Below, piece by piece: positions 33,532-50,341 of a stretch of 64,000 bases of DNA (position 1 is its first letter; every line of letters starts with the position of its first letter). Made by a program: the position numbers and the translations under genes. The notes under the pieces were generated by a model. It searched no databases. It was not told where the DNA came from and saw nothing but the letters and a program-made list of their open reading frames with translations. Location of the stretch: assembly GCA_963805625.1 (NCBI GenBank), contig CAWDVE010000012.1:32001-96000 (forward strand), read 5' to 3'. Source of the DNA: an uncultured Candidatus Rokubacteria bacterium. GTDB lineage: Bacteria; Methylomirabilota; Methylomirabilia; Rokubacteriales; DASRDR01.

Positions 33532-34804
33532 AGTACACCGAATCATGAATTCGTTCCGGGTTTTAGCCGGTAGCCGCCAGCCTCCGCTGACGGCGGACTT
33601 TCGCCAGCAGCTTCTGGGCCGTGTAGGTCCACTGGATCGGCTGAGCTCGGCGGTTGCGCTCGGCGAAGAAGGCCCGAATGCGCTGACGCACGTGAGTGGT
33701 GCTGTCAAAGTCGTTCGGCGTGAGCGCTTTCCGTTGCAGCTCGCTGAACACGATCTCGATCTGGTCGAGCCAGGACGCGTGGACGGGCAACCAGTGGAGG
33801 TGGACGGGGAAGGGCAGGTCGAGCGTCGTGATCCAGGTCGGCAGGCGCTTCGGGGCATGGGTGGAGCCGTTGTCCAGGATCAGGTGGAGGCTGCGGATCC
33901 TCCGACACCAGACGCTCCCGAAGAGCATCCGCAGGAAGCTCTGGAACTCGACGAAGCGCTTGCGCTCAAAGCAGCGGGCCAGGGTTTCGCCGGTGTGCAC
34001 CAGCAGGCCGCCAAACAACTGCACCGCGCCCTGGCGCTGGTAGCGATCCGGCAGGTACATCGGGCGACCGGGGCGTGCCGGGGTCGTGCGCCCACAGGCC
34101 CGTCGGGCCTGGATCGACGTCTTTTCATCCGCGCAGACGATGAGGTGCCCCGTCCGGGCGAGCGCCTGGGCCCGCTCGTAGAGGGTCAGAATCGGGATGG
34201 CCCGTTCGAGGAAGTGCGGATCGGTGGGGCGTTGCCAGCTGTGGTATTGCCACGGCTTGATGCGCTCGGCCTGGAGCCAGCGCTGGATGGTAACGCCTGA
34301 GATGCGCCGGACAATGCCGCGCTGGACGACCGTGCGGGCGAGTTCGGTAGCCGACCAGCGGGAGAGTGGCTTACCGGAATCCCGCGGCAGCGTGCAGGCC
34401 AACGCGGTGACCTGCGCTCGAACCGCTGAGGGGGAAAAAGCGTGGTCCCCCGGGCCGGGGCGCGTCCTGCAGGGCCGGCCCCGCCCGGCTGCGCCCTCGC
34501 CACTTGCGCACCGTCCGATCCGTGCACCCCACGGCTCGGGCAATGGCCGCGTTGCTCCAGTCCGGGTGCTCATAGGCCAGGAGCAGAATCTTCGCCCGCA
34601 CCACTGCCGCATAGGGAGCGGTGCGCCGACGGGTGAGGCGTTGGAGTTCCCGGTACTCCGGCGCCGTCAGAGCCACCTTGTGTCGCGGCTTCGGTCCACG
34701 GCGCGCCACGATGCGCCGTCCCCCCGCACCCATCGAACACACGATAGCGCGCGGGCATCCGGAACCCCAAGGAAACCCGGAACGAATTCATGATTCGGTG
34801 TACT
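33532..34804. mobile_element. IS630-family insertion sequence with 32-bp perfect terminal inverted repeats
   Basis: agtacaccgaatcatgaattcgttccgggttt (33532-33563) and its reverse complement (34773-34804). TA, within CTAAG, lies at both junctions. Confidence 0.92.
33563..34709 (-). CDS. IS630 transposase split into HTH ORF and DDE ORF joined by a +1 frameshift at T5C5
   Basis: ORF1 has RAKILLL...IARAVG..TVRKWR...DAPRPG. ORF2 has ADEKTSIQA, LILDN and SWLDQIE. The overlap contains TTTTTCCCCC (34430-34439, minus strand). Confidence 0.88.
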
Positions 34805-35029: not shown

Positions 35030-37480
35030 GTGCCCGCCCGCGCGCCTCCGGCTCCCCTCCCCGCTGGTCGCGTGGGCACCCTTCGCCGGAAACGTCCACC
35101 ACGACTGGCTCCGCTCCCCGACGGTCGGCCGGGCCCGCGTCCGAGGCTTCACGCGAACCGGGTGGGGCCGGCGCTTCGCCCGATCCTGACTCGCGACGCC
35201 GGGTCACCGCCTACCTCCGCCCCGCCTCCGACCCCTGGTGGCTCGGACCGCGAGGTCGCCGCCCCGGTTCTCGGTCTCCCGCGCCGTCGGCGCGGAGGGG
35301 CGCGGGCCGAGGCGACGGCGCTCCTCGCCCTCTACGGGTTGCTCCTCGTCGTCCCGTCGGCCAACTACCACCTCTTCGACGGCCTGCCTGCGAGCCGCGT
35401 GCCCGAATTCCTCGGGCTCGCCCTGCTCATCCCTTTGGTCGTCAGCCGGGCCCTCCGCCGCCTGTACGGCCGGCTCGTCGGCGGGTGGCCGGTGACGCGA
35501 CGTGCCCTCTTGGCGCTCGGCGCGGTCGCCCTCGCGGCGAAGGTCGTCCTGCTCGCCTCGGGGACTCATGCGGGCTTCCTGGCTTGCTACCGTTCGCCCA
35601 TCGCCGCGCCGCCCGCCGGACCCTGCGAGAAGTCATACGAGAACCCGTTCTCCCGCTTCGGCGTCACGCGGATCGACCGGCGTCTCGACTTCATCCCGGC
35701 CAACTGGGACCTGTCCTTCATCAACTCGCTGCGGTTCAACATCTATCACTGGGTCGCGGGCAACGTCGTCCGGGATCGTCTCCCCCTGGCCGCGACCTGG
35801 ACCGGGACGGTCGCGCGCTCGCGCGCCTGGACGGCCGAGGTACGCTACGTCGGCGCCGCCACCGTCCAGGTCGACTCGATGGAGCCGACGAGGCTCCGCC
35901 CCCGCTACGACACGCTGGCCGTCGCCCACGTGCCCATCCCCGCCGGCCGCCATCGCCTCGTCGTCACCTACGAGTTCGACGACGGCTCCCGAGTCGGCGA
36001 CGGGCACACGCGGGGCCCCTACGCCACCATTCGGCTGGCCCGGCTGAGCGAAGCGCCGGGCCCGGCGATGCCGGTGAGGCCGGTGCGACCGCCGCGGGCG
36101 TGGCGGTGGACCGGCGCGGCGGTCGACGCGGTCGTCGTCCTCCTCGCGGCGACGGTGGCCGGGGCGTGCGCCGTCGCTATGGCCCGCGAGGCGTGGATCC
36201 CGGCCGTCGTCGCGGTCGCGGCGGCCGGCAGCCACCTCTGGGACGGACGGCTGCCCGTCGTTCCGTCGCACTCGTGGTTCTTCCTCCTGCTCGCGCTCCT
36301 TTTCGCGCATCTCGCCCTGGGCGTCCGCCCGCAGCGGCTGCTGGGCGCCTACCTCGGCATCCTTGCGGCAGCCTTCTTCCTGGCGTGGCGGCGACTCGGC
36401 CGGTTGAACGTCGTCCAGTACCGGGCGGCCGGCGATGACTGGCTGACGTACGAGTCCTTCGCGCGGTCCATCCTCGAGACCTGGTCGCTCCGGGGCGCCG
36501 AGGACGTCTTCTACTACCAGCCACTCTTCCGCTACGTCCGCTTCGCCGAGCATTTCGTGCTGGGGGACGGCGATCCGTTCCTCCTGACGTGGGCGGTCGT
36601 GACGCTCACGTGGAGCCTATTCTGGCTCGGCGCGGTCGCGATCGGGCGGCGGCGCGCGTCGTTCCGGACCATCGTCCTCACCTTCGCCGGTCTGCTGCTG
36701 GTGCTGCTGGCGACCTCCCCGACGGTCCTCGACCTGGTGCACGCGGGAGTCTCCGAGTATCCAACCTGGATCGCGCTGCCCTTCTTACTGCCGATGCTCT
36801 TCGTGTCGTCCTCGACGAGGGCCTGGCTGCTGGGGGCGACCCTGCTGGGCCTCTCGCTCCTGACGAGAACGAACCAACTGCCGGCCGTCCTGGCGACGCT
36901 CGGGCTTTTCCTGTGGCGGGGCTGGCGGATCCGACCCCGCGCGGCCATCGCGGCCGGGCTCATGTTCGGCGCTGTCGCGCTGCTTCCCACGCTTCACAAC
37001 TACTACTACGGCGGTCGCCTGGTGCCGCTGACGACCAGCGCCGGGATCCCGGCGAATCTCGTGCTCCCGCCCGTGCGGTTGCTCGACGTCGCCCGCGACG
37101 CGGAGGTGCGGACGCGGCTCCGGACGCAGGTCGAGCGGATGCTGTACGTCGGTGGGTCCGACCGCGTCTTCGGGATGGCGGTCCGCGGGCTGCAGGTGCT
37201 GTGGGTGGTCACGGTCGGGGCGTGGGCGGTGACTGGCCGTGCGAGCTTGCCCCTCGCGCTACTGGTGGGCCTCCCCGTCTGCTACCTCGTTCCCCACGTC
37301 TTCTACCAAGCGACGCACGGCTATCCGCGGCACTTCCTCATTGGCTACCTCGCCATGGGGGCGGTCGTCCTCCTGGCCGAAGCGGGCTCGCGAGGCATTG
37401 CCCGGTCCGCGGCTCCGGCGATCGAATCGACGCCGCGAGAAGCGCCCATCATCCGGACGAGTCGGGGACCAATGGGCTGA
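35030..37480 (+). CDS. Large multi-pass membrane protein (GT-C-like) with PA14-like extracellular domain
   Basis: RIDRRLDF...ATWTG...G-x-H-x-L-x-V-x-Y beta domain, followed by GDDWLTYE, FYYQPLFRY and many TM segments. Start uncertain. Confidence 0.5.
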   Translation: MPARAPPAPLPAGRVGTLRRKRPPRLAPLPDGRPGPRPRLHANRVGPALRPILTRDAGSPPTSAPPPTPGGSDREVAAPVLGLPRRRRGGARAEATALLALYGLLLVVPSANYHLFDGLPASRVPEFLGLALLIPLVVSRALRRLYGRLVGGWPVTRRALLALGAVALAAKVVLLASGTHAGFLACYRSPIAAPPAGPCEKSYENPFSRFGVTRIDRRLDFIPANWDLSFINSLRFNIYHWVAGNVVRDRLPLAATWTGTVARSRAWTAEVRYVGAATVQVDSMEPTRLRPRYDTLAVAHVPIPAGRHRLVVTYEFDDGSRVGDGHTRGPYATIRLARLSEAPGPAMPVRPVRPPRAWRWTGAAVDAVVVLLAATVAGACAVAMAREAWIPAVVAVAAAGSHLWDGRLPVVPSHSWFFLLLALLFAHLALGVRPQRLLGAYLGILAAAFFLAWRRLGRLNVVQYRAAGDDWLTYESFARSILETWSLRGAEDVFYYQPLFRYVRFAEHFVLGDGDPFLLTWAVVTLTWSLFWLGAVAIGRRRASFRTIVLTFAGLLLVLLATSPTVLDLVHAGVSEYPTWIALPFLLPMLFVSSSTRAWLLGATLLGLSLLTRTNQLPAVLATLGLFLWRGWRIRPRAAIAAGLMFGAVALLPTLHNYYYGGRLVPLTTSAGIPANLVLPPVRLLDVARDAEVRTRLRTQVERMLYVGGSDRVFGMAVRGLQVLWVVTVGAWAVTGRASLPLALLVGLPVCYLVPHVFYQATHGYPRHFLIGYLAMGAVVLLAEAGSRGIARSAAPAIESTPREAPIIRTSRGPMG

Positions 37481-39302
37481 CCAGTCGTGCGAAGTAGGCG
37501 CTTTTCTCGACGACGTCCGCGTAGGACCCCGCCGCGGTGACCATGCCGTCTTCGAGGACGATGATCTGATCGCAACCGGCGATGGCGGAGGCCCGGTGCG
37601 TCACGGCGACGACGGTCCGCGGCTGATCGCGTCGGAGGGCCGCCCTGATCACCGTGGCCTCCCCATACGGATCCAGGGCGGAGGTCGCCTCGTCCAGGAC
37701 GAGGAGGCTGGGGTCGGAGTAGAGCGCCCGCGCCACGGCCAACCGCTGCCGCTGGCCGCCGCTCAGCGCCGACCCTCGCTCACCGAGCTGCGTGTGGAGC
37801 CCGCGCGGGAGCTGTTGGACCAGCTCCCAGAGCCCGACCTCCTCGAGCACGTGCTCGACACGGTCCTCGTCGATCGCGTCGGCGAAGAGCACGACGTTCC
37901 GGAGGATCGAGTCGTTGAAGATGTAGGGCTCCTGGGACACGACCCCGACGCCAGCCTGCCAGCCAGGTTCGAGTCCGCCCAGCGGCCGGCCGTCCAGTAG
38001 CACCTCGCCCGAAGTCGGCTCGAGCAATCCGACCAGGAGATCGACGAACGTGCTCTTCCCGGCACCGCTCGGCCCGACGATCCCCACGAAGCTGCCGGCC
38101 TCGATTCGGACCGTCACGTCACGCAGGGCCGGACGCTTCGACTCCTCGTACCAGGACGACACGCGCCAGAACTCGATGGCGACGTTCAGCACGGGAGGCC
38201 TCTTCGCCGGGCCGGTGCCGCCAGTGTATCGAGGACCGGCGGCGCCTCGAACGGGGACGTCCTGCAGCACCTGGTCGACGAACGGGAGACCGGCGCGAAC
38301 ATTCGCGAGATTGGTCGCGCTCCGGCCCGCCAGGGGCAACAGCCGGACGAGCGCGTACGCGAAGAGTCCGAGCATCGTCAGGACACGAGGCGTGTCGTAT
38401 TCCAGGCCGATCGTGAAGATGATGAGACTCGCGACTAGTATCATCGTGACACCCTCGATCACGATGCGCGGCAGGTCGACGAGGATCGCCCGATAACGGT
38501 TGGCGGCGGCCACCTTGGCGCGCTCCTCCCGGTGGCTGGACACCACGGGCGCCTCATGGTGGCGGAGGGTGATCTCGCGGCGTCCCTGCAGGACCTGATC
38601 CACGAACAGGTTCGCCGAGCGATCGTGCCGCTCGATGAGCGCGGTCGCTTCGTGGAGACGCGGGTTGACCGCCCTGACCAGCACGACGATCACGCCGGCC
38701 ACGAACGCCGCGGCGGCCAGCGTCCCCCACGGCGAGGCCACCACCATGACCGAGAGGATCGATGCGATGACGGCCGCGTCCGTAAGGAACTGGACGCCGG
38801 GCCGGAACACCTGCCACGCGACGAGCGTGGCGAGCTGCGAGACCCGCCGCTGGAGGTCCGCGACGCGGCGCTGCCTGAACCTGGCATACGGCATGCTCAC
38901 GTAGGCCCAGAGGAGGGCTTCGCCGATGACGATACCGGTCTCGACCGTCGCCGAGGAGGCGGCCGCCGTCAGCGCGAGAGTCAGGGCGGCCCGGAGCAGG
39001 AAGACGGCGACGACCACGGCCGTCACCAGAGCGGCCGTCGACGCCCCCACGAGGAGGAGCGGCGCTTCCGTCGCCCACGGCAGCAACGCCCGGGAGCCGG
39101 ACCCGGCCGACTGCGTCGCCAGCCGGATCACGTTGAGGAAGAGCGCGGTCGTGGCCAGCTCCGCCAGGGAGCAGAGACCGGTGAGGACCATCAGAAGAAC
39201 CCATCGGCGACGGACACGGCGGGGCAGCAGCCTGTAGATGGCCCGCGCCCGCGCCCACACCGACGCGGACGTGACCGGATCGCCCGCGTCCACCCGTGGC
39301 AT
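37449..39302 (-). CDS. ABC exporter, fused permease and ATPase
   Basis: GPSGAGKST, LSGGQRQRLAVARALY, LDEATSALD and VTHR motifs, with an N-terminal TM domain and no C39 peptidase domain. Start is at 39302 or 39452. Confidence 0.9.
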   Translation of the reverse strand: MPRVDAGDPVTSASVWARARAIYRLLPRRVRRRWVLLMVLTGLCSLAELATTALFLNVIRLATQSAGSGSRALLPWATEAPLLLVGASTAALVTAVVVAVFLLRAALTLALTAAASSATVETGIVIGEALLWAYVSMPYARFRQRRVADLQRRVSQLATLVAWQVFRPGVQFLTDAAVIASILSVMVVASPWGTLAAAAFVAGVIVVLVRAVNPRLHEATALIERHDRSANLFVDQVLQGRREITLRHHEAPVVSSHREERAKVAAANRYRAILVDLPRIVIEGVTMILVASLIIFTIGLEYDTPRVLTMLGLFAYALVRLLPLAGRSATNLANVRAGLPFVDQVLQDVPVRGAAGPRYTGGTGPAKRPPVLNVAIEFWRVSSWYEESKRPALRDVTVRIEAGSFVGIVGPSGAGKSTFVDLLVGLLEPTSGEVLLDGRPLGGLEPGWQAGVGVVSQEPYIFNDSILRNVVLFADAIDEDRVEHVLEEVGLWELVQQLPRGLHTQLGERGSALSGGQRQRLAVARALYSDPSLLVLDEATSALDPYGEATVIRAALRRDQPRTVVAVTHRASAIAGCDQIIVLEDGMVTAAGSYADVVEKSAYFARLVSPLVPDSSG

Positions 39303-39537
39303 CACGATCGGCGGCGCGACGCTCGACCGCTCAGGGAGCGCGCCGGGACACGACCCCACGAATGGCTCGTCGTGGGCGGCCCCATACTTTCGGTGCCCGC
39401 CGTCGGACCTCGGCCTCGAGGCCGCCCGGACATCGATGGCGGCCCGATCCACGATCCACGCCGGCGCCCAGGAGCGCCGATGGGCCCGCTTTGGGCGTGG
39501 GCATCACCGGGTCGATGGCCTCGGCACGGCGGCGGGT

Positions 39538-40728
39538 TCAGTGATGATGGTGCTCGTACGCCCCCGCGGCGAGCCGGAAGAGGCGAAGGGGGTAGTGGAG
39601 GAATGACAGCGCGCGCGGCAGTCTCCGCGCTGCCCAGTCCTCGACCGTGAGGGTCGTCATCGCCAGCCAGCAGTACCGGACCCGATGGCGCCACCGCTCC
39701 CGGACGCGGAGCTGGAATCGGGCCTGCTCGAGGAGGCCGGAGGGGCGGCCGTCGTCCCGAAACAGCCGCGCCCGGACCGCGGCTGCCAGCGTAGGGACGA
39801 CGGCGTCCACCTCCGCCCGCCGCCGCACCGGCCCGGGCATCGGGGCGCCGAGCAGGTCCGCGGCCACTCGGAGCCCCAGCGCGAGCATCCGCTCGCTGGC
39901 AGCTTGCCGGGCCTCCGCCACCATTCGCGCCCAGTCGAGGCCGGGCCGGGCCCGCGTCAGCTCGGCGATGTCGCAGATCCAGATCAGGCGCTCCCACATG
40001 TGCTTGGCTCCGTGCTCGCAGAGGCTCGGCAGGAGGACCTCGGGCGCTAGCGTCGTGACGGTGGTGCCGGCAATCGTGACCGGCTCGAGCCGCTCCCAGA
40101 GTCGCTTGGGCTCGAGGAGCAGCGAGACGTGCCGCGGCGAGATCTCCCAGTGCAGCTCCACCATGGCCGATCGGTCGGGGCGCACCAGCGAGTAGGCGTG
40201 CTGGGACTCGACCAGCGCCTGCTCCTGGCTCTGGCTGAGCGCCACGTTCGGACGGAAGCCCTCGGCGACCAGGACGTCCTTCGCGCGTAGCACCTCCTGC
40301 TTGTTCACCAGGATGTCGAGATCGGAGAAGTCCCGGAGGCCGACGTGGCCGTAGGCCGTCATGGCCAGGGCCGGGCCGCGGTAGGGGATGGCCGGGATGC
40401 CCTCAGCGGTGAAGCGTTTCAGGATGGAGCAGAGCTGAAGGGCCAGGAAGAGGTTGCGGCGCTGGGTCTTCTCGAAGCTTTCCCTGAGGCGCTCGGGCAC
40501 CCCGGCGGGGAGCAGGCCGGGCTCCACCCCCTTGAGGTGCCAATGCACCAGTGGCAGCACCCCGTGCCATCGGGCCGTTCGGAGGATGTACTCCCAGTCG
40601 AGCTCCCGGTCGAGAAGCCCACGGAGGCGCTCGGCCGTCGGCGGGTCCATCCGCGTGCGCGCGCAGGCCAGCAGGAGCTCGCCCTCGGGACGGGAGCTGG
40701 TGGGTCCCGCCGGGGTGCCGGGTGACAC
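39538..40728 (-). CDS. Nucleotidyltransferase family protein (NTP_transf_5-like, lasso-cluster type)
   Basis: WHGVLPL, PYRGPALA..YG...LRDFSDLDILV, VELHW and HGAKH.W.RL.W..D motifs. Confidence 0.88.
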   Translation of the reverse strand: MSPGTPAGPTSSRPEGELLLACARTRMDPPTAERLRGLLDRELDWEYILRTARWHGVLPLVHWHLKGVEPGLLPAGVPERLRESFEKTQRRNLFLALQLCSILKRFTAEGIPAIPYRGPALAMTAYGHVGLRDFSDLDILVNKQEVLRAKDVLVAEGFRPNVALSQSQEQALVESQHAYSLVRPDRSAMVELHWEISPRHVSLLLEPKRLWERLEPVTIAGTTVTTLAPEVLLPSLCEHGAKHMWERLIWICDIAELTRARPGLDWARMVAEARQAASERMLALGLRVAADLLGAPMPGPVRRRAEVDAVVPTLAAAVRARLFRDDGRPSGLLEQARFQLRVRERWRHRVRYCWLAMTTLTVEDWAARRLPRALSFLHYPLRLFRLAAGAYEHHHH

Positions 40729-40964
40729 TATGGATTTCAGCCCTGAGCGCTCGCCTGGGTTTCGCGGTGGGTTGAACGACGAGCCCGGGTCGTCACCCCA
40801 GAATCCTACATCAGGGCGTCAGCCTGACCAAGACGCCGCCCATGTGTCGAGCCATCGCAGGGAGAGGCTGAGGTTCCTGGCCCCATTGCCGAGGACACCT
40901 CGACGCCGGGGTCCGGGTCCATCTGCCACCGAGGCACGAGAAAGGGGCGCCCAGAAAGTTCTTC

Positions 40965-40994
40965 TTGACACCCTCCGCGGTTCCACGCTAAAGG
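40965..40994 (+). promoter_or_regulatory. Possible sigma70 promoter of the RRE-precursor operon
   Basis: Perfect TTGACA at 40965-40970 in the divergent intergenic region. The -10 element is weak (TAAAGG at 18-bp spacing). Confidence 0.35.
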
Positions 40995-41017
40995 TATCTT
41001 CCAGCGTGAGGGAACTC

Positions 41018-41293: not shown

Positions 41294-41319
41294 CACAACC
41301 AACCCGGGGAGGCCAACAG

Positions 41320-41466
41320 ATGGATCAGCAGGCGACGGCGCGGTACGAGCGGCCCTCGATCACAGTGATGGACGAAGAGGAGCTGCTGAAGGTCTTCCAG
41401 ATGACGGCAGCGGAGATCAGCGTGGCGTCCTGCTGGTGGAACGCCTGCCCGACCGGTTGCCCGTAA
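41320..41466 (+). CDS. Putative RiPP precursor peptide, 48 aa: MDQQATARYERPSITVMDEEELLKVFQMTAAEISVASCWWNACPTGCP
   Basis: Manually translated. GGGGAGG RBS lies 7 nt upstream of the ATG, directly after the RRE gene. YxxPxI RRE-binding motif, acidic leader and Cys/Trp-rich C-terminus. Confidence 0.88.
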   Translation: MDQQATARYERPSITVMDEEELLKVFQMTAAEISVASCWWNACPTGCP

Positions 41467-41492
41467 CGCCCACATCCTCGATCGTTCGAGCT

Positions 41493-41531
41493 CACGGCCT
41501 CGGTGCTCCGGCAACGGACGCCGAGGCCGTG
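41493..41531 (+). terminator. Strong stem-loop downstream of the precursor (mRNA stabiliser or leaky terminator)
   Basis: CACGGCCTCGGTG-C-TCCG-[GCAA]-CGGA-CGCCGAGGCCGTG forms about 17 bp of stem with a GNRA tetraloop, followed by a poor U-tract (tgttg). Confidence 0.7.
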
Positions 41532-41601
41532 TGTTGATGAGCGCCTTCTTGCGAATCCTGGGCGTCGCGGCCTGCGACTGACGCGAAGCGGGGGACAAGG
41601 A

Positions 41602-42420
41602 ATGGGAGCAGCGGCTCAGTACGCCACGAAGGTCGTACGTGGAGTGACTCTCCGTGCGGACCCGGCCCGCGAGGCCTGCTTCAAGGTCGTGAACGACGCC
41701 ACCGATCTGGCGGACTATGCGGACATGTCGCCGGTGGCCCGGCGTCAGCGGCTCCACAAGCACATGCACAACGAGATGCAGAGTCTCGAGATGGCGGCGC
41801 AGTCCGTGGCCGACTTCCCCGACGCGCCGTGGGACGTCAGGATGGGGCTGGCCCGCCAGTGCTGGGACGAGACCCGGCACTCTCAAATCCTCCACCGGCG
41901 GCTCCGGGAGGTCGGGGGCTACAAGGGCGAGTTCCCGGTGATGAACTTCGAGTGGAGCATCACCTGCATGATGGACTCTCTCTCCGCGCGGCTGGCCATC
42001 CAGAACCGCACGTTCGAGGGGGGGGAGATCGACCTCCTGCGGCATCTTGTCGGCGTGTGGCGGGAAGAGGGCGACAACGACACCGCCGATCTCCTCGACG
42101 GGATCCTCGTCGACGAGATCCAGCACGTCCGCCTGGCCAACGAGTGGTTCAAGCAGATGTCCCGGCAGGATCCGACGGTGCTGCTGAAGCTGGCCGCGGC
42201 CGTCAACTTCCTGAAGCGCGTCACCCAGGCGTTCCAGCCGGCTCCCGGCGAGGTGAATGCCGCCGGCGTGAACCTCACCGGCTTCGAGCATGTCGAGATG
42301 CTCTCGAACGTCGAGGACCGGCTCCGCGCGGGATTCACGGAGCGGGAGATCGCCCAGATCCAGCTTCAGGAGAGCCAGCTGCGGGCCTCTGCGGCAGCAG
42401 AGAAGACCGCCGTATCCTAG
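41602..42420 (+). CDS. Ferritin-like diiron protein (DUF455-like), paralogue 1
   Basis: Four-helix diiron ligand pattern: HNEMQSLE, WDETRH, NRTFEGG and DEIQHV. Confidence 0.8.
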   Translation: MGAAAQYATKVVRGVTLRADPAREACFKVVNDATDLADYADMSPVARRQRLHKHMHNEMQSLEMAAQSVADFPDAPWDVRMGLARQCWDETRHSQILHRRLREVGGYKGEFPVMNFEWSITCMMDSLSARLAIQNRTFEGGEIDLLRHLVGVWREEGDNDTADLLDGILVDEIQHVRLANEWFKQMSRQDPTVLLKLAAAVNFLKRVTQAFQPAPGEVNAAGVNLTGFEHVEMLSNVEDRLRAGFTEREIAQIQLQESQLRASAAAEKTAVS

Positions 42421-42437: not shown

Positions 42438-43547
42438 GTGTCAACCGCCGTCGGACTCGGCCGGTGGAACGCGACGCTCGAGCGCGTCCTGGAGGCGCCG
42501 GAGCCGCGGCCCCGCCAGACTGAACCAGTCTGGTTCCGGTTCGGCGACGGGTTCTTGGAGGTCGTCTCCGACCACGAGCCGCTCCTCCGCGACCTCGAGG
42601 CCTTCTACGGGGACTGCGGGATCGCCGAGCCTCCCGCAGAGGGATGTCGGGTCCGCTGCACCGCGAGCCTGCTCCCCGGCGTCCCGTTGCTGTCCCTCTC
42701 GTTCAGCGGGCCACGCCAGCCCGATCTGATCGAGGTCGCGCGGAGCCCCTACCGGTTTCGCCGGCGCGAGCCGTACATCGAGGCTCCCGGCCCGGCGCCC
42801 GGCTGGCGCCTGCTGGTGAATCGCGATGCGGACGACCGCCTCCTCATCGCGACCAACGGCCGGGTGAGCTTGGTCAACCTCGACGAAGCGCCGGCCGAGT
42901 TCGTCGTCGACCTGGTCGTCTCCGCGGCCCAGAGTATCCAGACCGGGGTGCTGTTCCTCCACGCCGGCTCCGTGGGCGTCGGCGGAACGGGCGCCCTGAT
43001 CATCGCCCCGACCAACGGGGGCAAGTCGACGACCACCCTCGCCCTGGCGCGGCGCGGCCATGCCTTCCTCGGCGACGACGTGGCGGCGGTGCGGCTGGCC
43101 ACCCGCGAGCTGCTGCCGTTCCCGAGGTCGGCCGGGCTGCGGGAAGGATCCCTGGCCCGATCCCTGGAGGGGCAGGTGCAGGGGTGCCGCCACGTGCGCG
43201 CCACGAACCGTCACGGGATCGAGCGGGCCGTCGTGCGGGTCAGCGATCTCTTCCCCTGGTCGGTCAGCGGCCCGCTGCCCCTCCGGTTCGCGTTCGTCCT
43301 CGACGGGCTGGCGGAGAGCGCCGCGATCTCGGAGTTCCGGCCTGGGCTCGGCGAGCTGCCCCGGCTCCAGTCGACGGTGACCGACACGTCGACATCCTGG
43401 GGGCTCTCGCCCGGGCGTGACCTGATGCTGTTCCTCTCGGTGGTGAACCTTCTGTCCGGCCTGCGCTGCCATCTCGTGCAGCGCGGCTCCCCGGACGAGA
43501 CCGCACGCGTCATCGAAGCCGCCATCATGGAGGGAACATGTACCTGA
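42438..43547 (+). CDS. HPr kinase-related P-loop kinase
   Basis: LFLHAGSV....GALIIAPTNGGKSTTTLALARRG..FLGDD..V......LPFPR. GTG start inferred. Confidence 0.8.
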   Translation: MSTAVGLGRWNATLERVLEAPEPRPRQTEPVWFRFGDGFLEVVSDHEPLLRDLEAFYGDCGIAEPPAEGCRVRCTASLLPGVPLLSLSFSGPRQPDLIEVARSPYRFRRREPYIEAPGPAPGWRLLVNRDADDRLLIATNGRVSLVNLDEAPAEFVVDLVVSAAQSIQTGVLFLHAGSVGVGGTGALIIAPTNGGKSTTTLALARRGHAFLGDDVAAVRLATRELLPFPRSAGLREGSLARSLEGQVQGCRHVRATNRHGIERAVVRVSDLFPWSVSGPLPLRFAFVLDGLAESAAISEFRPGLGELPRLQSTVTDTSTSWGLSPGRDLMLFLSVVNLLSGLRCHLVQRGSPDETARVIEAAIMEGTCT

Positions 43548-44098
43548 ACGTGAAGGAGCGGGGCGACCACGTAGCCACCTTTCGCTGGATCGAGGTGCGC
43601 CTGATGGAGATGTTGGCCGCCTGGGTCCCCACCACGCCCGAGATGGAGGTGAAGCTCGTCTTCGGAGCCCACATCTGGGAGGCCGCGCAGCATGCGGACG
43701 CGCTGGGGAAGCGGACCCACGAGCTGCGGCTGCCCCTCCACGACAGCCTCGAGCCCGCCCGTGGGTACGTCGACTTGCTCACGGAAGTGGCCAGGACGAC
43801 CGACACCAGCAAGCGGATCGCCGCGTTCTACGATTGCCTGCTCCCGGGCCTCGAGCAGCGCTTCCGGCGTTACATCGAGCGGGTCGACACGCTCCTGGAC
43901 GGCCCCACCGTCCGGATCCTCGAGCGGATCATGGGCGACATGGCCCGCATGACGGCCGACTGTCGCGCCCTCCTAGAGGAGGTGCCGGCCGTCAAGCTCA
44001 AGGACCACAAGTGGCTCGATGCGCTGCGCCAGCGCGAGGCAGGTCTCGGTGACATCATCGTCCACCGGGTGTCGAGCCCGGCGGCGGTCCCGGCGTGA
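43538..44098 (+). CDS. Short ferritin-like protein with degenerate metal ligands, paralogue 2
   Basis: WIEVRLMEMLAAWVPTTPEMEVKL.FGAHIWEAAQHADALGKR..EL. The second ExxH is absent. GGAGG RBS, and the gene overlaps the kinase stop. Confidence 0.6.
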   Translation: MYLNVKERGDHVATFRWIEVRLMEMLAAWVPTTPEMEVKLVFGAHIWEAAQHADALGKRTHELRLPLHDSLEPARGYVDLLTEVARTTDTSKRIAAFYDCLLPGLEQRFRRYIERVDTLLDGPTVRILERIMGDMARMTADCRALLEEVPAVKLKDHKWLDALRQREAGLGDIIVHRVSSPAAVPA

Positions 44099-44808
44099 GC
44101 GTCATGGCCAGCATCGGCACGATCGTGGTGCGCGGTGGCGTCACTCTGCGAGCGAGCCCGGCTCGAGACTCCTGCTTCAGGATCGTCACCGACCAGGCCG
44201 ACATGGTGAAGCATCCCGACGGGTCGCTCGAAGCGCGTCGGGAGCAGCTGCACAGCGATGTGAACAACGAGCTCCAGAGCCTGGAGATCGCCGCCCAGTC
44301 GATCGTCGACTTTCCCGAAGCGCCCTGGGAGCTGCGCCTCGAACTGGCCCGCCAGTGCTGGGACGAGGTACGCCACGCCCGCCTGTTCCTCGGCCGGCTT
44401 CTCGCGCTCAAGGGATACCTGGGGGAGTTCCCCATCATCAACCAGGAGTGGGGCGTCGTCTGCATGTTCGACTCCCTCCCGGCGAGACTTGCGGTCCAGA
44501 ACCGGATCTTCGAGGGCCTGTCACTCGACGTCTTCAAGGAGAGCGTCGAGGTGTGGGCGGGCTGGGGCGATCCCGAGACGGCCGAGGTCATGGAAGGCGT
44601 CATGGTCGACGAGATCCGGCACGCGGCATTTGCCCAGGAGTGGCTTCGCCGCCTGGGAGCCGGTAACCCGGGCGTGACGCTCAAGGCCGTGGCGGCCATG
44701 AGCCAGCTGAAGACGATGAGCATCGCCTTGACCCCCGCCGGGCAGAAGATGGAGCACGAGATCCCGGTCAACACCGAGGACCGGCGTCACGCCGGGCTTC
44801 CCATCTGA
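44095..44808 (+). CDS. Ferritin-like diiron protein (DUF455-like), paralogue 3
   Basis: NNELQSLE, WDEVRH, NRIFEG and DEIRH motifs. Clearly similar to 41602-42420 (VRGGVTLRASPARDSCF versus VRGVTLRADPAREACF). Confidence 0.8.
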   Translation: MSVMASIGTIVVRGGVTLRASPARDSCFRIVTDQADMVKHPDGSLEARREQLHSDVNNELQSLEIAAQSIVDFPEAPWELRLELARQCWDEVRHARLFLGRLLALKGYLGEFPIINQEWGVVCMFDSLPARLAVQNRIFEGLSLDVFKESVEVWAGWGDPETAEVMEGVMVDEIRHAAFAQEWLRRLGAGNPGVTLKAVAAMSQLKTMSIALTPAGQKMEHEIPVNTEDRRHAGLPI

Positions 44809-44816
44809 GTTCGCCC

Positions 44817-45560
44817 ATGAGTACGCCTCAGGACGCCGCTCGCCCTCCGCTCGACCCGGCGCTGTTCGCCGATGGCCCGGCGCGCGATTCGCGGTTCGCG
44901 GTGAAGGACCGCTGGATTGAGATGGCCAACACCCCGGCCGACCATCCCCTTCATCAGATGGAATTCACGCATCGCCAGATGAACGAGGAGATCAACGGCC
45001 TCGAGTGCTCGGCGCGCGGCCTGAGCGACTTCCCGGACGCGGCCTGGGAGCTCCGGATGGCGCTGGCCAGGCAGTGCGTCGACGAGGCGCGCCACGTCAA
45101 GATGTTCCGGCGCCTCCTCGAGCGCCTCGGAGGGCACGTCGGGCAGTTCCCGGTGCTCAACTTCCAGTACCGCATCATCACGAAAGCGGACAGCCTGATC
45201 GGCCGGCTGACGATCCAGAATCGTACGTTCGAGGCTGGCGGGCTCGACGCCGTCTCCGCGGTGGTCGAGCAGATGCGGGCGAGGGGCGACGACGACCTCG
45301 AGCTGTTCTTCGACTCCCAGCTGGCCGACGAGATCCTCCACGTGCGCTTCGCCAACGAGTGGATTCGCCGGCTGATCCACGAAGACCCGCGAAACGTTCT
45401 CCGGATGGGGAGCGCGATGACGGCCGCGGCGAAGGCGTTCAAGCAGGTGATGGGAAGGGAAGGGACGGAAGGAGTCAGCTATCCCACCGACAGACAGGCT
45501 CGTTTGGAGGCGGGGTTCACCCCCAGTGAGGTCGAGATGGACGCGGGGTCCAAGGCCTAG
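44817..45560 (+). CDS. Ferritin-like diiron protein (DUF455-like), paralogue 4
   Basis: NEEINGLE, VDEARH, NRTFEAGGLD and ADEILHV motifs, with a C-terminal ARLEAGFT as in DUF455. Confidence 0.82.
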   Translation: MSTPQDAARPPLDPALFADGPARDSRFAVKDRWIEMANTPADHPLHQMEFTHRQMNEEINGLECSARGLSDFPDAAWELRMALARQCVDEARHVKMFRRLLERLGGHVGQFPVLNFQYRIITKADSLIGRLTIQNRTFEAGGLDAVSAVVEQMRARGDDDLELFFDSQLADEILHVRFANEWIRRLIHEDPRNVLRMGSAMTAAAKAFKQVMGREGTEGVSYPTDRQARLEAGFTPSEVEMDAGSKA

Positions 45561-45594: not shown

Positions 45595-46200
45595 ATGACG
45601 AGGTCGCTCAGCGAGGCGGACACGGCGACGTCCCGTCCTGATCCGGTCCAGGCGGTCGCGGCTTTCTTCCGGGAGGATCCGGCGCGCATCCTCGCTGTCG
45701 CTTCGAGCCTCCGAGGCCCCGACCGCAGCATCGAGTCCACCGTCGAGGGTAAGAGCATGGGGCGGACGCTCCCGCCCGGCTCTCGGATCCGCATCGAGCT
45801 GGCCGATCGACCCGGTTACGAGGTCGGGGAGGTGGTCGCGTTCCTGGCCCGGGGCAAGGTCGTCGTGCACCGGGTGGTGCACAAGAGCCAGCGGGGTGCG
45901 GCTCGCGGCCGGCTCCTCACGCGGGGCGACGCCGCGCTGGTCCCCGACCCGGCGATCGACGTGGCGAGCGTCCTGGGCGCGGTGACCGCGATCGACCGTG
46001 ACGGAGGCTGGGTGCCGCCGGATGGACGGCCCCGCCGATCGCTCCCCGCTCGAGTCGTGGCCTCGCTCGCGCTGGCCATCGTCGCGCGCGTGCTGGAGGC
46101 GAGCCCTCGGGCCGCGGACGTCGTCGTGCGGCTGCTCCACCGAGGACGGCCGCTCCATGCGGCGTGCCTGCGTCACGGCGGGCGAGGGGTGGCACCATGA
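45595..46200 (+). CDS. S24/S26 family (signal-peptidase-like) Ser/His peptidase
   Basis: VEGKSMGRTL..G, GEVVAF, VVHRVV and TRGD motifs. No N-terminal TM anchor. Confidence 0.82.
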   Translation: MTRSLSEADTATSRPDPVQAVAAFFREDPARILAVASSLRGPDRSIESTVEGKSMGRTLPPGSRIRIELADRPGYEVGEVVAFLARGKVVVHRVVHKSQRGAARGRLLTRGDAALVPDPAIDVASVLGAVTAIDRDGGWVPPDGRPRRSLPARVVASLALAIVARVLEASPRAADVVVRLLHRGRPLHAACLRHGGRGVAP

Positions 46201-46961
46201 AGCTGGTCGCCCAGACCTCGCAGTTCCACGTCTATGACGACGTCCTGCTGGAGAAGGATTTCCGCGCGGTTTGGAACTACGTCCAGCTCGAATCGTACGT
46301 GCCGGTACACCACGACGGCTGGGTGAAGGTCTGGCGCATCTCCGACGGCGTCCCGCTGGGCGCGTTGGCGACCGTGCTCTACGAGAGCCCCAAGCGTCCG
46401 GCCGGATCGGAGGACGCCAAGGGCACCCGCATCTATCCCACGCACACGGGGCTCGACCGGGTGCTGGAAGCCCTCAGGACCCATGCCGACCAGCTGGCCG
46501 ACCTCGTCGGCAAGTGGGGCGCCGATTTCGACAACGTGAGCGCTCGTGCGTTCCTCTATCCGCAGGGGACGGGGCTGTCCTGGCACGAGGACGCGGTCAA
46601 CTACACCGGCGGGTACGCCTTCTACGCGCATCCGGAATGGAACGTCCAGTGGGGCGGCGAGCTCCTCGTCGCCGACGAGTCCGCCAGGTCCCAGCATTTC
46701 GAGGACGACCGGCTCCCGGTTCTTACGCGCACGGAGGAGGGGCTCCGGCTCACCAAGGTGCGCATCCCGCCGTTCCTCGACAATGCGCGCCAGAATACCG
46801 TGCTCGCGCAGCGCGGCATGGGATGCTACATCACTCCGAAGCCCAACCGACTGGTCGTGATCGCTGCCGGGAACGCCCACATGATCAACCGGGTCCACCC
46901 GGCCGCCGGAGACCACGTCCGCTGCACGATCGCGGGCTTCTTCATCTCCTCCAAGGTTTGA
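46197..46961 (+). CDS. Fe(II)/2-oxoglutarate oxygenase (prolyl-4-hydroxylase-like)
   Basis: LSWHED, Y.HPEWNVQWGGEL, PKPNRLVV...H.I..V and R.TIAGFF motifs. ATGA-coupled. Confidence 0.85.
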   Translation: MKLVAQTSQFHVYDDVLLEKDFRAVWNYVQLESYVPVHHDGWVKVWRISDGVPLGALATVLYESPKRPAGSEDAKGTRIYPTHTGLDRVLEALRTHADQLADLVGKWGADFDNVSARAFLYPQGTGLSWHEDAVNYTGGYAFYAHPEWNVQWGGELLVADESARSQHFEDDRLPVLTRTEEGLRLTKVRIPPFLDNARQNTVLAQRGMGCYITPKPNRLVVIAAGNAHMINRVHPAAGDHVRCTIAGFFISSKV

Positions 46962-47017: not shown

Positions 47018-48721
47018 ATGCGGGGTGGCTTCGTCGTCTGCCTGAACGGAAACGGGCGCCTTCTCGACCAGGTCGTCGAGCACGTGCGCTGGCACCACGG
47101 CAAGGGCATCCGGGATCACCGCGATGGCCTGGAGATCGCCGCCCTCGTCGACGGCGCCGACGGCCCGGCCATCGAGATCGGAGCCGGCCGGACCGTCCTG
47201 GTCCATGGCGCCGCCCCGGCGCCCCTCGCCGAGCTCCAGCGCCGCGGGACGCGGTTCGCGGCGATCGAGTGGGACGGAGTGCGATTGCGCGCCAGCCGGG
47301 ATCCGATGGGCCTCGCCCCGCTGTTCTACCGGGCGTATCAGGGAGTCGTGTGGCTTGCCACGGAAGTGCAGCCCCTGGTCGCCCTGGGACGCGCGGCTCC
47401 GGACCTGGAAGCGCTCACGGCCAGGACCGCGTTCACCCCGATCGACGATCGGACGGGCTGGGAGGGCATCGGGCGCGTGCTCCCCGGGTCGACGCTCGAG
47501 TTCGGCCCCGATCGGCAAGTCTCCTCCGCCCGCTACTGGCAACCGGCCGAGGCCCTCGGTCGGTACCGGGGCAGTCGCGCCGAGGCGCTGGCGGAGTTCC
47601 GGGAGCGGTTCCGCACGGCGGTGGGGCGGTGCTACGAGCCCGGTGGCGGCATCCTGCTCAGCGGGGGTCTCGACTCGGCGGCGGTGGCCCTGACGGCGGC
47701 CGAGCAGGGGCAAACCCGCCCGCATCTGGTGCATGTCCACTTCCCCGACCTTCCCGAGACGCACGAGCAAGGATACGCCAGTGCGGTGGCGGCCGCCGTT
47801 GGCGCTCCGCTCCACGTCGTCCCCGGGCAGGTCGACCCCTGGGACGTGGACCCCGAGCTCGACGGCTGGGGAGGGATCGCTTACAGCTGGGTGCCCTACG
47901 GCATGGAGGACCCCGCCCTGGCCCACATGGCGGCCTCGGGTGTCACGGTGGCGCTGGACGGCCACGATGGAGATGGCGCCCTCGGTCCCCTCGGCTCCAA
48001 CTGGGGCGACATGATCCTGAAGGGGGAGCTTCGCCAAGTCGCCGCGCTGGCCGTGCGCCATGGCGCGTGGGCGCTCGTCCGCGGGGTCGCCGTCGATTTC
48101 CTTCCGCCGTACGCCTGGTTACGCCGGCTGGCCGGCCGCCCTCCCCGAGCAACCTACATGCAGTCGGTCGCTCACTACTTTCGCGGGCCCCTCCGCGACC
48201 GCAGCCTCGCGGCCGACATCGAGCGGTGGACGTGGCCGTCGAGGCGCTGGGGGGTGCGGCAGCTCCAGCCGCTGCTTCCGCGTGCGACGATCTCCTTCGA
48301 GCAGAAGGAGCTCGAGGCGGCTCGCCACGGCCTCGACATGCGCCATCCCTTTGCCGACCGTGAGCTGGTCGAGTTCCTCATCTCGCTCCCGTCGGCCGTG
48401 AAGAGCGATCCGATGCGTCCCAAGGCGATCCTCGTGGACAGCCTGAGCGACCTGCTTCCCAAGGCCGTCCAGCAGCGCCCAAAAAGCGACTACATGGCCG
48501 CCGTCCGACAGCGGGTGGACCCGGCCGCCTGCATCGAGAGGATCCGGGCCTCGGGCGTTCGCCTGCCGGGCATCGAGTACGGACGACTCCTGGACGACGC
48601 CCGGCTCGATCCCAACGGGCTGCCGCTGTTCTTCCTCGTCAATCTCACCCGGATCCACGCGTTCGCCCAGCGGGCCCTCGAAGCGGCCGGCGGCTCCGGG
48701 AAGGGGGCGCCCCATGTCTGA
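47018..48721 (+). CDS. Asparagine-synthetase-related ATP-dependent amide ligase (lasso-cyclase-like), lacking the glutaminase Cys
   Basis: RDPMGLAPLFY, LSGGLDS, GHDGD and RHPFADRELVEF motifs. The N-terminus is MRGG rather than MCG. Confidence 0.82.
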   Translation: MRGGFVVCLNGNGRLLDQVVEHVRWHHGKGIRDHRDGLEIAALVDGADGPAIEIGAGRTVLVHGAAPAPLAELQRRGTRFAAIEWDGVRLRASRDPMGLAPLFYRAYQGVVWLATEVQPLVALGRAAPDLEALTARTAFTPIDDRTGWEGIGRVLPGSTLEFGPDRQVSSARYWQPAEALGRYRGSRAEALAEFRERFRTAVGRCYEPGGGILLSGGLDSAAVALTAAEQGQTRPHLVHVHFPDLPETHEQGYASAVAAAVGAPLHVVPGQVDPWDVDPELDGWGGIAYSWVPYGMEDPALAHMAASGVTVALDGHDGDGALGPLGSNWGDMILKGELRQVAALAVRHGAWALVRGVAVDFLPPYAWLRRLAGRPPRATYMQSVAHYFRGPLRDRSLAADIERWTWPSRRWGVRQLQPLLPRATISFEQKELEAARHGLDMRHPFADRELVEFLISLPSAVKSDPMRPKAILVDSLSDLLPKAVQQRPKSDYMAAVRQRVDPAACIERIRASGVRLPGIEYGRLLDDARLDPNGLPLFFLVNLTRIHAFAQRALEAAGGSGKGAPHV

Positions 48722-49475
48722 CGCCGCGGCGGGGACGGGTTCGGCCGCGTCCGCGCTCGCGCGGGACGGCTTCGCCGGTCCGTTCCCGCTCGGGACCCCG
48801 GCCCAGATGAGCGTCGTGGCCCTCCAGCTGTTCAAGTCGGTGTTCACCCGGCCGGGACCCTTCGCCGACGACCCCTTCCTCGATCGCCACCTCGATTCGC
48901 CGCTGGTCGCCCACCTGGCCACGCATCCCGCGATCCTCGCCCGGGTCGAGCCGCTCCTGGGCGGCGACCTCGTCGCCTGGCGATCGATCTTCTTCGCCAA
49001 GGGCCCGACGAGCCGGGAAGTGCCGTGGCATCAGGACGGCCACTTCTGGAACCTCGATCCGCCGATCACGCTCACCGCGTGGCTCGCGATCGACCGCGCC
49101 CACGGCGCCGATCACTGCATGGAGGTCGTGCCCGGCTCCCACCGGACGGCGCTTCCGCACGTCCCGTCGGCTCCGGGATCCCAGTTCCCGGAGAGCACCG
49201 CCCCCGGGTCCTTCGACCTCTCCCGAGCGATCGAGCTGCCGGTGGATGCCGGGATGTTCGTCCTGTTCGACCAGCGCCTCGTGCACCGTTCGAAGGGAGG
49301 CGGCCAGGCGCGGCGCCTCGCCCTTTCGGTGAGGATCGCCCCCGCGCACGTCCGGATCCCCCCCCACTTGCTGCCTCCGGGTGGCCGCGTGCTGCCTTTT
49401 GGGTGGAGGTCCCTCGCCGAGTCACCCCTCGAGGCCTCCCGGTCCGCCTCGTCCGACCCGCGCCGCGCCTCGTGA
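48714..49475 (+). CDS. Phytanoyl-CoA dioxygenase (PhyH)-family Fe(II)/2OG oxygenase
   Basis: FFAKGP..VPWHQDG.FW, TAWLAID, VVPGSH and LVHRS..RRLA motifs. Confidence 0.88.
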   Translation: MSDAAAGTGSAASALARDGFAGPFPLGTPAQMSVVALQLFKSVFTRPGPFADDPFLDRHLDSPLVAHLATHPAILARVEPLLGGDLVAWRSIFFAKGPTSREVPWHQDGHFWNLDPPITLTAWLAIDRAHGADHCMEVVPGSHRTALPHVPSAPGSQFPESTAPGSFDLSRAIELPVDAGMFVLFDQRLVHRSKGGGQARRLALSVRIAPAHVRIPPHLLPPGGRVLPFGWRSLAESPLEASRSASSDPRRAS

Positions 49476-50341
49476 CGCGCCCCGGCGACGCCAGCCCGGC
49501 CGACGCCGCCATGCGGGAGGCGCGCGAGCAGTCCTGGTTCCACACGATCAATCTTCCCGACGGCAGCAGCACGCGCGGTGTCTTCGACAACCGGGGCGTG
49601 GCCCGGCTGGTGCAGTGGCCGGCCGGCCTGCCCGGCGGCCGGTGTCTCGACGTCGGGACGTGTGACGGCTTCTGGGCCTTCGAGATGGAGCGCCGCGGCG
49701 CCGCCGAGGTCACCGCGATCGACGTGGACGACCCCGCCCACCTCGACTGGTCGTGGGAGTCCCGCCGCAACCCAGACGCCACGCAGGCATGGCGGGCGCG
49801 TCGGGGCCACCGCTTCGACATCGCCCGCCGCGCTCTGGGGTCGCGGGTGAACCGGGTGGCCTGCTCCGTCTACGATCTCGACCCGTCCGTCCACGGCCGG
49901 TTCGACGTGGTCTTCTGCGGGACCCTGCTGGTGCATCTCCGGGACCCGGTCCGGGCGCTCGAGCGCATGCGCGAGGTCTGCGCGGGCGAGCTCGTTCTCG
50001 TCGAGTGCATCGACGCGGTCCTGGACGTGGTCGCCTGGCGGGTGCCTTGCGCCCGATTCACCCCGGCGGCCGAGCAGTGGTGGCGGCTCAATCGGGCCGG
50101 GCTCCTCCGCATGCTGCGGGTCGCCGGCTTCGACGTGCTGTGGGCGAGCCGCCGGTTTCACACGCCGTTCGGGCCGAGCGTGCTGCTTCACCCGTCCCGG
50201 CGGTTCGGGCCGCTCCGCGCCGGCCGGGCGGCGGTGGCCCAGGTGCTGCGGGCGTTCCCGAGCGCCCCGGTCCTGGCCGATGCCGCCGGGCTGGCGCTGG
50301 GCACGTACGACGTCGCCGTCCGCGCCCGGCCCCGACCGTGA
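49472..50341 (+). CDS. Class I SAM methyltransferase (CmoB/DUF1698-like)
   Basis: WFHTINL, RCLDVGTCDGFWAFEMERRGA and FDVVFCG.LLVHLRDP motifs. GTGA-coupled (alternative ATG at 49511). Confidence 0.85.
   Translation: MTRPGDASPADAAMREAREQSWFHTINLPDGSSTRGVFDNRGVARLVQWPAGLPGGRCLDVGTCDGFWAFEMERRGAAEVTAIDVDDPAHLDWSWESRRNPDATQAWRARRGHRFDIARRALGSRVNRVACSVYDLDPSVHGRFDVVFCGTLLVHLRDPVRALERMREVCAGELVLVECIDAVLDVVAWRVPCARFTPAAEQWWRLNRAGLLRMLRVAGFDVLWASRRFHTPFGPSVLLHPSRRFGPLRAGRAAVAQVLRAFPSAPVLADAAGLALGTYDVAVRARPRP

Follow-up and report, generated by a model that had tools for sequence, protein, structure and literature searches.

A RiPP precursor with a Trp-Trp pair and an associated candidate diiron module of DUF455 proteins in an uncultured Rokubacteria bacterium

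Which product is encoded by a 48-codon open reading frame (ORF) of an uncultured Candidatus Rokubacteria bacterium, and which enzymes act on it? The ORF lies in the stretch of 64,000 nucleotides analysed here (the window), among the genes listed in Table 1. Translation of positions 41320-41466 (+) confirmed the frame, its GGGGAGG ribosome-binding site (RBS) and the features reported in a preliminary description of this DNA, namely the motif Y9-E-R-P12-S-I14, an acidic segment DEEELLKVF, the C-terminal sequence C38-W-W-N-A-C43-P-T-G-C47-P, and E32 as the sole acidic residue beyond position 21. The ORF almost certainly codes for a RiPP precursor. Across 54 distinct DNA sequences coding for the long form of the peptide (see below), the codons L23 to W40 vary mainly at the third position (0.079, 0.085 and 0.281 for the first, second and third codon positions, respectively). 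Among 2732 short RBS-preceded ATG ORFs of the window genome, only 11 contain YxxPx[LIV], and only 41320-41466 fits the family profile. The same genome harbors a second precursor-like family of four paralogous ORFs of 42-47 aa with RBS and the motif YEPPxIE...LTP.D...REV.[YF].G (G000 C10:524202(+), C10:1958989(-), C10:1830149(-) and C25:81252(-), minus positions being counted on the reverse strand). In four studies, RNA libraries yielded contigs of close relatives that lie over the RRE gene and the peptide, with a contig bridging both in each run; since DNA in these libraries is not excluded, expression is not separable from DNA carry-over, and the lack of such contigs over 40681-41004 or 42463-42867 proves nothing. 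A promoter and terminator scan called neither a sigma-70 promoter nor an intrinsic terminator. A perfect TTGACA, followed by an imperfect -10 element and uncalled by the scan, is located at window positions 40966-40971, about 50 nt upstream of the RRE start. The hairpin downstream of the precursor likely has a stabilising effect on the joint message of RRE and precursor; tested against mononucleotide shuffles only, it is strong at some related loci and missing from many.

Table 1 Features of the gene cluster in the window; the last column gives presence among 23 near-complete clusters
Feature	Coordinates	Strand	Properties	Clusters (n = 23)
MsbA-like ABC transporter (start uncertain)	37449..39452	-	TIGR02203, E 1.3e-71, under cut-off; divergent from operon	
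NTP_transf_5 nucleotidyltransferase	39538..40728	-	E 3.4e-60	16 (within fetched DNA)
Stand-alone PqqD/RRE, 91 aa	41018..41293	+	PqqD match, E 3.8e-15	21
RBS GGGGAGG	41306..41312	+	7 nt upstream of precursor ATG	
Precursor peptide, 48 aa	41320..41466	+	leader YxxP...L23-x-x-F26-Q27-x-T29; predicted core A30-P48 including S34 and W39-W40	
Strong RNA hairpin, 13+4 bp	41493..41531	+	3' of precursor gene; z -2.99 for 41460-41605	
FerA, DUF455 ferritin-like	41602..42420	+	E 3.3e-28; ligands E58, E90, H93, E139, E172, H175	23 (FerA-type)
HprK-related kinase	42438..43547	+	His / Walker A GKS / DD motif	21
FerX, no Pfam/NCBIfam family	43538..44098	+	ferritin-like fold; predicted FerA partner	23
FerB, optional third DUF455 protein	44095..44808	+	PF04305 match	15
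FerC, DUF455 protein, own clade	44817..45560	+	PF04305 match	23
Soluble SpI-like leader peptidase (S26, archaeal/SipW type)	45595..46200	+	TIGR02228, E 2.9e-9, under cut-off; triad S53, H91, D117 invariant in 14/14 aligned	21
2OG-Fe(II) oxygenase, accessory	46197..46961	+	homology	
Asparagine-synthetase-like protein (AsnB-like)	47018..48721	+	ATP site kept; N-terminal Cys missing	18
PhyH-family dioxygenase, accessory	48714..49475	+	homology	
SAM-dependent methyltransferase, accessory (start uncertain)	49511..50341	+	homology	

All 44 candidates of a word-index search were relatives of the peptide (E <= 2.5e-11), and a HMMER search of 1.84 billion representatives gave 87 matches to the peptide profile at E <= 0.001, four of which were set aside as long proteins. 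Comparison of the profile with NCBIfam and with PDB sequences yielded chance matches only, and no NCBIfam precursor model fits. Eight peptide loci come from genomes and 46 from metagenomes, with record titles naming Burkholderiales, Steroidobacteraceae, Chloroflexota and Acidobacteriota. Genome searches detected the peptide in 3 of 251 genomes of the window's phylum (its own genome counted), in 7 of 401 genomes of a second phylum (five of these with a true cassette) and in 3 of 401 genomes of a third group; weak matches in G432 and G375 and a second one in G646 showed neither a WW peptide nor DUF455. The distribution is patchy, because the peptide was absent from the 60 closest relatives searched. 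Loci L002 and L066 represent one contig, which is titled Candidatus Acidoferrum and placed by genome search in the window's own order. Transposase-like ORFs, recognised from translations only, are found at window positions 33563-34742, 57179-58393 and 61632-62348; they flank the polysaccharide/RiPP region on both sides, in line with a mobile island.

The 173 distinct peptides compared were selected with a pattern in which YxxP, L-x-x-F-Q-x-T and WW are obligatory. Under a looser pattern permitting WS, WW was kept in 173 of 174 peptides, a conservation which, like that of FQxT, is partly built into the search patterns and the profile. Six short HMMER matches (P0216, P0218, P0221, P0224, P0259 and P0265) have a fitting leader and no WW. 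Nine residues separate T29 from WW in the long form (n = 120), and five or six in the short form (n = 53). A cysteine immediately precedes WW in 116 of the 120 long forms; the short forms all lack it, and 47 of them have no cysteine after T29 at all. Three cysteines are present in 77 long forms, and the exact C-x4-C-x3-C arrangement, previously regarded as defining the core, occurs in 57. E32 gives way to Q, K, R or N in 16/120 long forms, and no short form contains an acid between T29 and WW. Since the cysteines and E32 vary and the short forms are Cys-free before WW, it is the Trp pair and not the cysteines that constitutes the constant feature of the core. The expectation that related loci would retain the YxxP and Cys/Trp positions thus held for YxxP and WW, in part owing to the search itself, and not for the distal cysteines. 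Position 34 is Ser in 110/120 long forms, and a matching Ser/Thr is found in 36 of the 41 short forms with a five-residue spacer; Ser at position 32 occurs in 0/120 long and 6/53 short forms. Ala31 is present in 160/173 peptides, while Asn41 and Pro44 are variable; among the modification sites listed in the preliminary description, Trp is likely and Ser plausible as a site of phosphorylation. The peptide ends one or two residues after WW in 40 of 173 relatives, some of them after a single residue. The precursors at L008:8985-9224, L033 and L044 carry tails of 35-46 residues after WW (Chloroflexota record), a possible follower or second domain.

These counts bear on the earlier suggestion that Cys-Trp cross-links lead to a Cys-rich metal-binding or quinone-type redox-cofactor peptide. 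The cysteine in front of WW and the three cysteines of many long forms would be compatible with it, as would a di-haem MauG/CCP-like gene near the clusters of the window, L036 and L037. However, the same enzyme core serves the 53 short forms that lack the cysteine before WW, the distal Cys motif is confined to fewer than half of the long forms, the di-haem gene accompanies only 3/23 clusters, and neither a dehydrogenase nor any other client gene is conserved across the clusters. With no conserved partner gene behind it, we consider such a product rather unlikely; within the long subfamily, a Cys-Trp cross-link may occur as an extra modification.

Docking of the leader on an RRE, also postulated before, is supported by the PqqD-like protein encoded directly upstream and by gene fusions. 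All 37 aligned RRE relatives match PqqD, and the best solved-structure matches are the lasso B1 proteins TbiB1 (5v1u) and TfuB1 (6jx3). The fetched DNA includes the RRE gene at 52 of 60 non-duplicate peptide loci, and at 15 of these 52 the RRE and the precursor form a single reading frame, mostly without a Met in the linker. Such fusions, which are strong genetic evidence for the RRE-peptide pairing, occur in the short form too (P0254, P0260); searches of the open-access literature returned no relevant description of RRE-precursor fusions.

The resemblance to lasso leaders suggests an atypical lasso peptide or macrolactam whose core starts at F26, with Tyr at -17, E32 as ring residue 7 and the AsnB-like protein as cyclase. 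In lasso leaders, YxxPxL spans -17 to -12 according to a published account (PMC10368454), and F26 sits 17 residues past Y9 in all 174 peptides; the AsnB-like protein keeps its ATP site, without the N-terminal Cys. Against this stand the residues found in place of E32, the lack of an acid between T29 and WW in the short forms, the lack of a B2 protease in the cluster, and the AsnB-like gene itself, which falls into three types and went undetected in 5/23 clusters, L047, L085 and L090 among them. Moreover, the AsnB-like protein scores 92 bits, as compared to a lasso-cyclase cut-off of 525 (NF033535). A lasso product is very improbable, in agreement with the preliminary description; a ring through E32 was attractive from the -17 register and was dropped because E32 proved variable. 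Of 9 genomes searched, 4 contain PF13471, the B2 protease family, which none of the scanned cluster ORFs matches. The window genome has one copy, on contig C16, whereas the cluster is on C12. The C16 copy belongs to a separate lasso-type cluster of RRE, B2 and AsnB-like genes (G000:C16:413867-416326), in which the YxxP pattern detected no precursor.

Gene content was compared in 23 near-complete clusters, defined as those whose DNA reaches FerC; they were chosen via the peptide and are related, so that the counts in Table 1 are not independent. FerX, a FerA-type protein and FerC occur in all of them and are thus more constant than the kinase (21), the AsnB-like protein (18) and the NTP transferase (16). 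The two clusters without peptidase are contigs ending at FerC, and L053 and L090 lack the kinase. Of the core set, L090 retains just RRE, peptide, FerA, FerX, FerC and peptidase. The Cys-free short-form clusters L064 and L081-L084 contain the same cassette, with a FerA-type gene downstream of FerX. A notion that FerA is specific to the Cys-containing form was rejected on account of this gene; its FerA-type assignment comes from a tree of a quick search only (branch 90, not starred), which did not include the FerA-type part of the L081 fusion. The flanks of L064, L081, L083 and L084 contain genes for a formyltransferase (three loci), a glutamine-dependent AsnB (four) and HTTM-domain proteins (three). 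In the window, the cluster is located among glycosyltransferase genes of a polysaccharide locus, and the di-haem MauG/cytochrome c peroxidase-like gene (50469-52523, -) converges on the operon.

The defining feature of the system, of which the preliminary description made no mention, is the diiron module of DUF455 proteins and FerX. FerA, FerB and FerC match Pfam PF04305 above the cut-off, have a ferritin fold with E/ExxH/E/ExxH ligands and are mutually 39-48% identical; the six ligands are invariant in 55/55 aligned DUF455 proteins. From these ligands we infer a dimetal centre and O2 chemistry, which would make the three proteins candidate diiron-carboxylate proteins. The FerA model (pLDDT 94) gave tied fold matches, with the VlmB homologue 6d9f at the top (Z 15.5, rmsd 3.8, 201 aligned residues) and aldehyde-deformylating oxygenase also among them; for FerA as well as FerX, many ferritin-like proteins tie as matches, storage proteins included (Z 14-16). 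FerX has 984 homologues, one of which, with 64% identity, is from the cultured Ramlibacter monticola (P0165), and a ferritin-like model (pLDDT 95). It lacks both ExxH motifs: in 48 aligned sequences, the first reads D/E-[VLAC]-A-Q-H and a Glu/His pair is missing from the second. ToMO chain B (1t0q_B; Z 15.3, rmsd 3.1, 176 aligned) is among the tied matches of FerX, and we take such ToMO-type chains to be metal-free structural subunits. FerX had no match at E <= 0.001 among PDB sequences or by Foldseek and none in a plasmid collection; since profile comparison of FerX with FerA gave a probability of just 0.3%, it is the fold alone that relates the two. No reductase or ferredoxin gene is conserved across the clusters.

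FerA and FerX are predicted to form a complex with a score of 0.94, the best of three controls scoring 0.00; the mark applied to this score was reached by 116 of 157 solved pairs and 2 of 215 mismatched pairs. The runs agreed in at least 98% of contacts, with a partner pLDDT of at least 94. The model supports binding, although resemblance to ferritin-like dimers of solved structure may account for its score. Of 28 FerA interface residues, 18 are kept in FerB and 15 in FerC, as compared to overall averages of 114/236 and 90/247. FerX forms the N-terminal part of FerX-DUF455 fusions: all 18 longer FerX homologues have a C-terminal DUF455-like part by BLAST, 16 of them by Pfam call. Proteins P0168-P0171, one labelled Candidatus Tectimicrobiota, are FerX-FerA-type fusions, and at L081 a FerA-type protein and FerC are joined in one 565-aa ORF. 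The window genome also encodes a DUF455-FerX pair without a peptide (G000:C13:270666-272060; L067:8667-10028), adjoining iron-sulfur cluster assembly-like and cysteine desulfurase-like genes. Because of this pair, the FerX-DUF455 combination is not RiPP-specific; FerX looks like a general DUF455 partner that was recruited to the WW-peptide clusters.

The diiron genes might accordingly be hitch-hikers acting on another substrate, e.g. of the surrounding polysaccharide pathway, and the peptide a plain phosphopeptide of the LPP type (linear polyphosphorylated peptides; Popov et al. 2026, PMC13381572). Genes of all five LPP core types occur in the cluster, the surroundings are rich in glycosyltransferases, and L067 illustrates FerX and DUF455 without a peptide. 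In all 23 clusters, however, the diiron genes point in the same direction as those for the precursor, kinase and peptidase and are interspersed among them; two clusters dispense with the kinase, and LPP cores vary, in contrast to the fixed WW. A product of phosphorylation only is therefore quite unlikely, and the diiron module probably acts on the peptide.

Tailoring tracks the peptide. MrsD/EpiD-type flavoproteins decarboxylate C-terminal Cys, and a gene for an EpiD/MrsD-like flavoprotein adjoins the RRE gene in each of the three clusters (of 23) with a Cys-ending peptide and in 0/20 others, five of which have less than 3 kb of upstream DNA; at L048 the peptide ends in Cys, yet there is no flavoprotein gene within 1.5 kb upstream. 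FerB occurs in 15 clusters, all with tails of at least eight residues after WW, and is absent from eight with tails of at most seven, a correlation read by eye and after the fact. A tryptophan halogenase gene follows the L007 cluster, and JmjC, Asp/Asn hydroxylase, formyltransferase, HTTM and fatty-acid-hydroxylase-like proteins are further exchangeable accessories. Tailoring specific to the tail implies that the tail is kept. This is of relevance for the possibility that the peptide is cut down to a small Trp-Trp-derived molecule, in an excision like that of PQQ or mycofactocin, or is consumed by the diiron enzymes as a sacrificial co-substrate. Such a fate would agree with the relatives ending directly behind WW, with WW alone being universal in the core and with several oxidases per operon. 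It is disfavoured by the tail-specific tailoring, the single conserved peptidase and the absence of a radical SAM enzyme from the core set, and we regard it as unlikely, albeit the least unlikely of the alternatives.

We favor, with moderate confidence, the reading that the intact peptide is modified at WW, yielding an LPP-like RiPP with an O2/diiron oxidation as primary modification. This reading builds on sequence conservation and gene linkage, on fusions, motifs and folds, and on a single predicted complex, from which we infer reactions and product. The RRE would bind YxxP, as suggested by the fusions and by the lasso and LPP RREs, and the HprK-like kinase would likely phosphorylate S34. 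FerA and FerC, supported by the ligand-less FerX in a predicted heteromeric enzyme, would then likely oxidise W39-W40 with O2, in the simplest case one Trp each, and FerB likely acts on the longer tail after WW. As to the exact chemistry, our leading candidate is one oxidation per Trp, a hydroxylation that may proceed to a cross-link, although we give it less than even odds. The SpI-like peptidase likely removes the leader and frees A30-P48. Previously, a cut after T29-A30 had been proposed, which presumes a lasso B2 protease, whereas the cluster encodes the SpI-like enzyme; we hold cleavage after A30 to be improbable. Signal peptidases obey a small-residue rule, and T29-x-A31 would fit it alternatively, so that cleavage after A31 is possible. 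Cleavage after T29, to which we assign an even chance, is proposed by analogy, because LPP are cleaved after F-E-T. Finally, accessory enzymes would decorate the core, and the ABC transporter likely exports the product.

A RiPP class takes its definition from the enzyme of the primary modification, and DUF455 is a widespread family of unknown function. Evenly balanced between acceptance and doubt, in our judgement, is the wider proposal of a new RiPP class, in which a multi-subunit ferritin-like diiron oxygenase would cross-link or oxidatively remodel the Trp-Trp pair, with two or three DUF455 catalytic chains and the metal-free FerX in a build resembling multicomponent monooxygenases, and with many precursors bearing their own RRE. 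If the proposal holds, DUF455 ferritin-like proteins would be RiPP-modifying oxidases, a first function for DUF455, and a defined 19-residue substrate with a minimal system of six genes (RRE, precursor, FerA, FerX, FerC and peptidase, as in L090) would be directly expressible. The SpI/RRE (LPP) chassis would then reach beyond Bacillota and carry exchangeable chemistry. FerX also matters for DUF455 in general, as the two occur fused or paired outside WW-peptide clusters. The open-access literature contained no characterised DUF455 member and no link of DUF455 or ferritin-like diiron proteins to RiPPs; newness is meant for this literature only, and a large mining study may already list these clusters.

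Among known systems, HPr-rel-A and SynChlorMet (TIGR04352/04353, TIGR04248/04249) likewise combine a PqqD protein with an HprK-related kinase; all scores are under cut-off (the RRE reaches 33 bits with TIGR04353, cut-off 35), and the clusters described here have no radical SAM enzyme. The pathways to PQQ, mycofactocin, CTQ and TTQ are marked by a radical SAM or MauG-type maturase along with a client dehydrogenase; here the core set has no radical SAM enzyme, a di-haem gene was seen near 3/23 clusters and no client is conserved. The ferritin-like diiron oxidases aldehyde-deformylating oxygenase, VlmB homologue 6d9f, R2lox and the two-subunit hydroxylases ToMO/T4MO/PaaAC share the four-helix fold and the E/ExxH/E/ExxH ligands with FerA, FerB and FerC, but sequence identity is at most 19% and no reductase gene is present here. 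These oxidases act on small molecules, and we know of none acting on a ribosomal peptide. Phosphorylated lasso peptides of the paeninodin and Bsf types (PMC10368454) share the YxxP leader, a B1-like RRE, an HprK-like kinase with the same His/GKS/DD motifs and, in many clusters, an AsnB-like protein; they differ from the present system by their B2 protease and conserved ring acceptor, since here no Asp/Glu is conserved at core positions 7-9 and the AsnB-like gene is variable.

The closest relatives in terms of gene content are the LPP, which PMC13381572 describes as restricted to Bacillota, with variable cores, a leader YxxPxVLxHQxIxFETxxS and phosphorylation of Ser3 as primary modification. 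That study demonstrated RRE-dependent cleavage after F-E-T as well as phosphorylation of Ser; the SpI-like peptidase cuts directly after Thr, and LppS bears TIGR02228. In the text and supplements searched, "DUF455" is absent from both, "PF04305" from the supplements and "ferritin" from the text, while the neighbourhood table counts Ferritin once. Shared with LPP are a discrete RRE, a SpI-like Ser-His-Asp peptidase (TIGR02228), an HprK-like kinase, an NTP transferase, an MsbA-like transporter, the polysaccharide-locus setting and a YxxP leader ending in F..T. By contrast, the WW-peptide system has a longer leader with an acidic helix, a fixed WW, a universal diiron module, a dispensable kinase and frequent RRE-precursor fusions, and it occurs in other phyla. 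Compared with the published LPP leader consensus, HQ is missing, F-Q-x-T replaces FET and the Tyr-Phe offset is 17 instead of 13; the Ser/Thr is at position 34 and not at core position 3. On leader consensus and Ser3, the WW-peptide cluster thus falls outside LPP while using the LPP chassis, and it represents an apparently undescribed RiPP family in which a known chassis is combined with a new candidate enzyme class.
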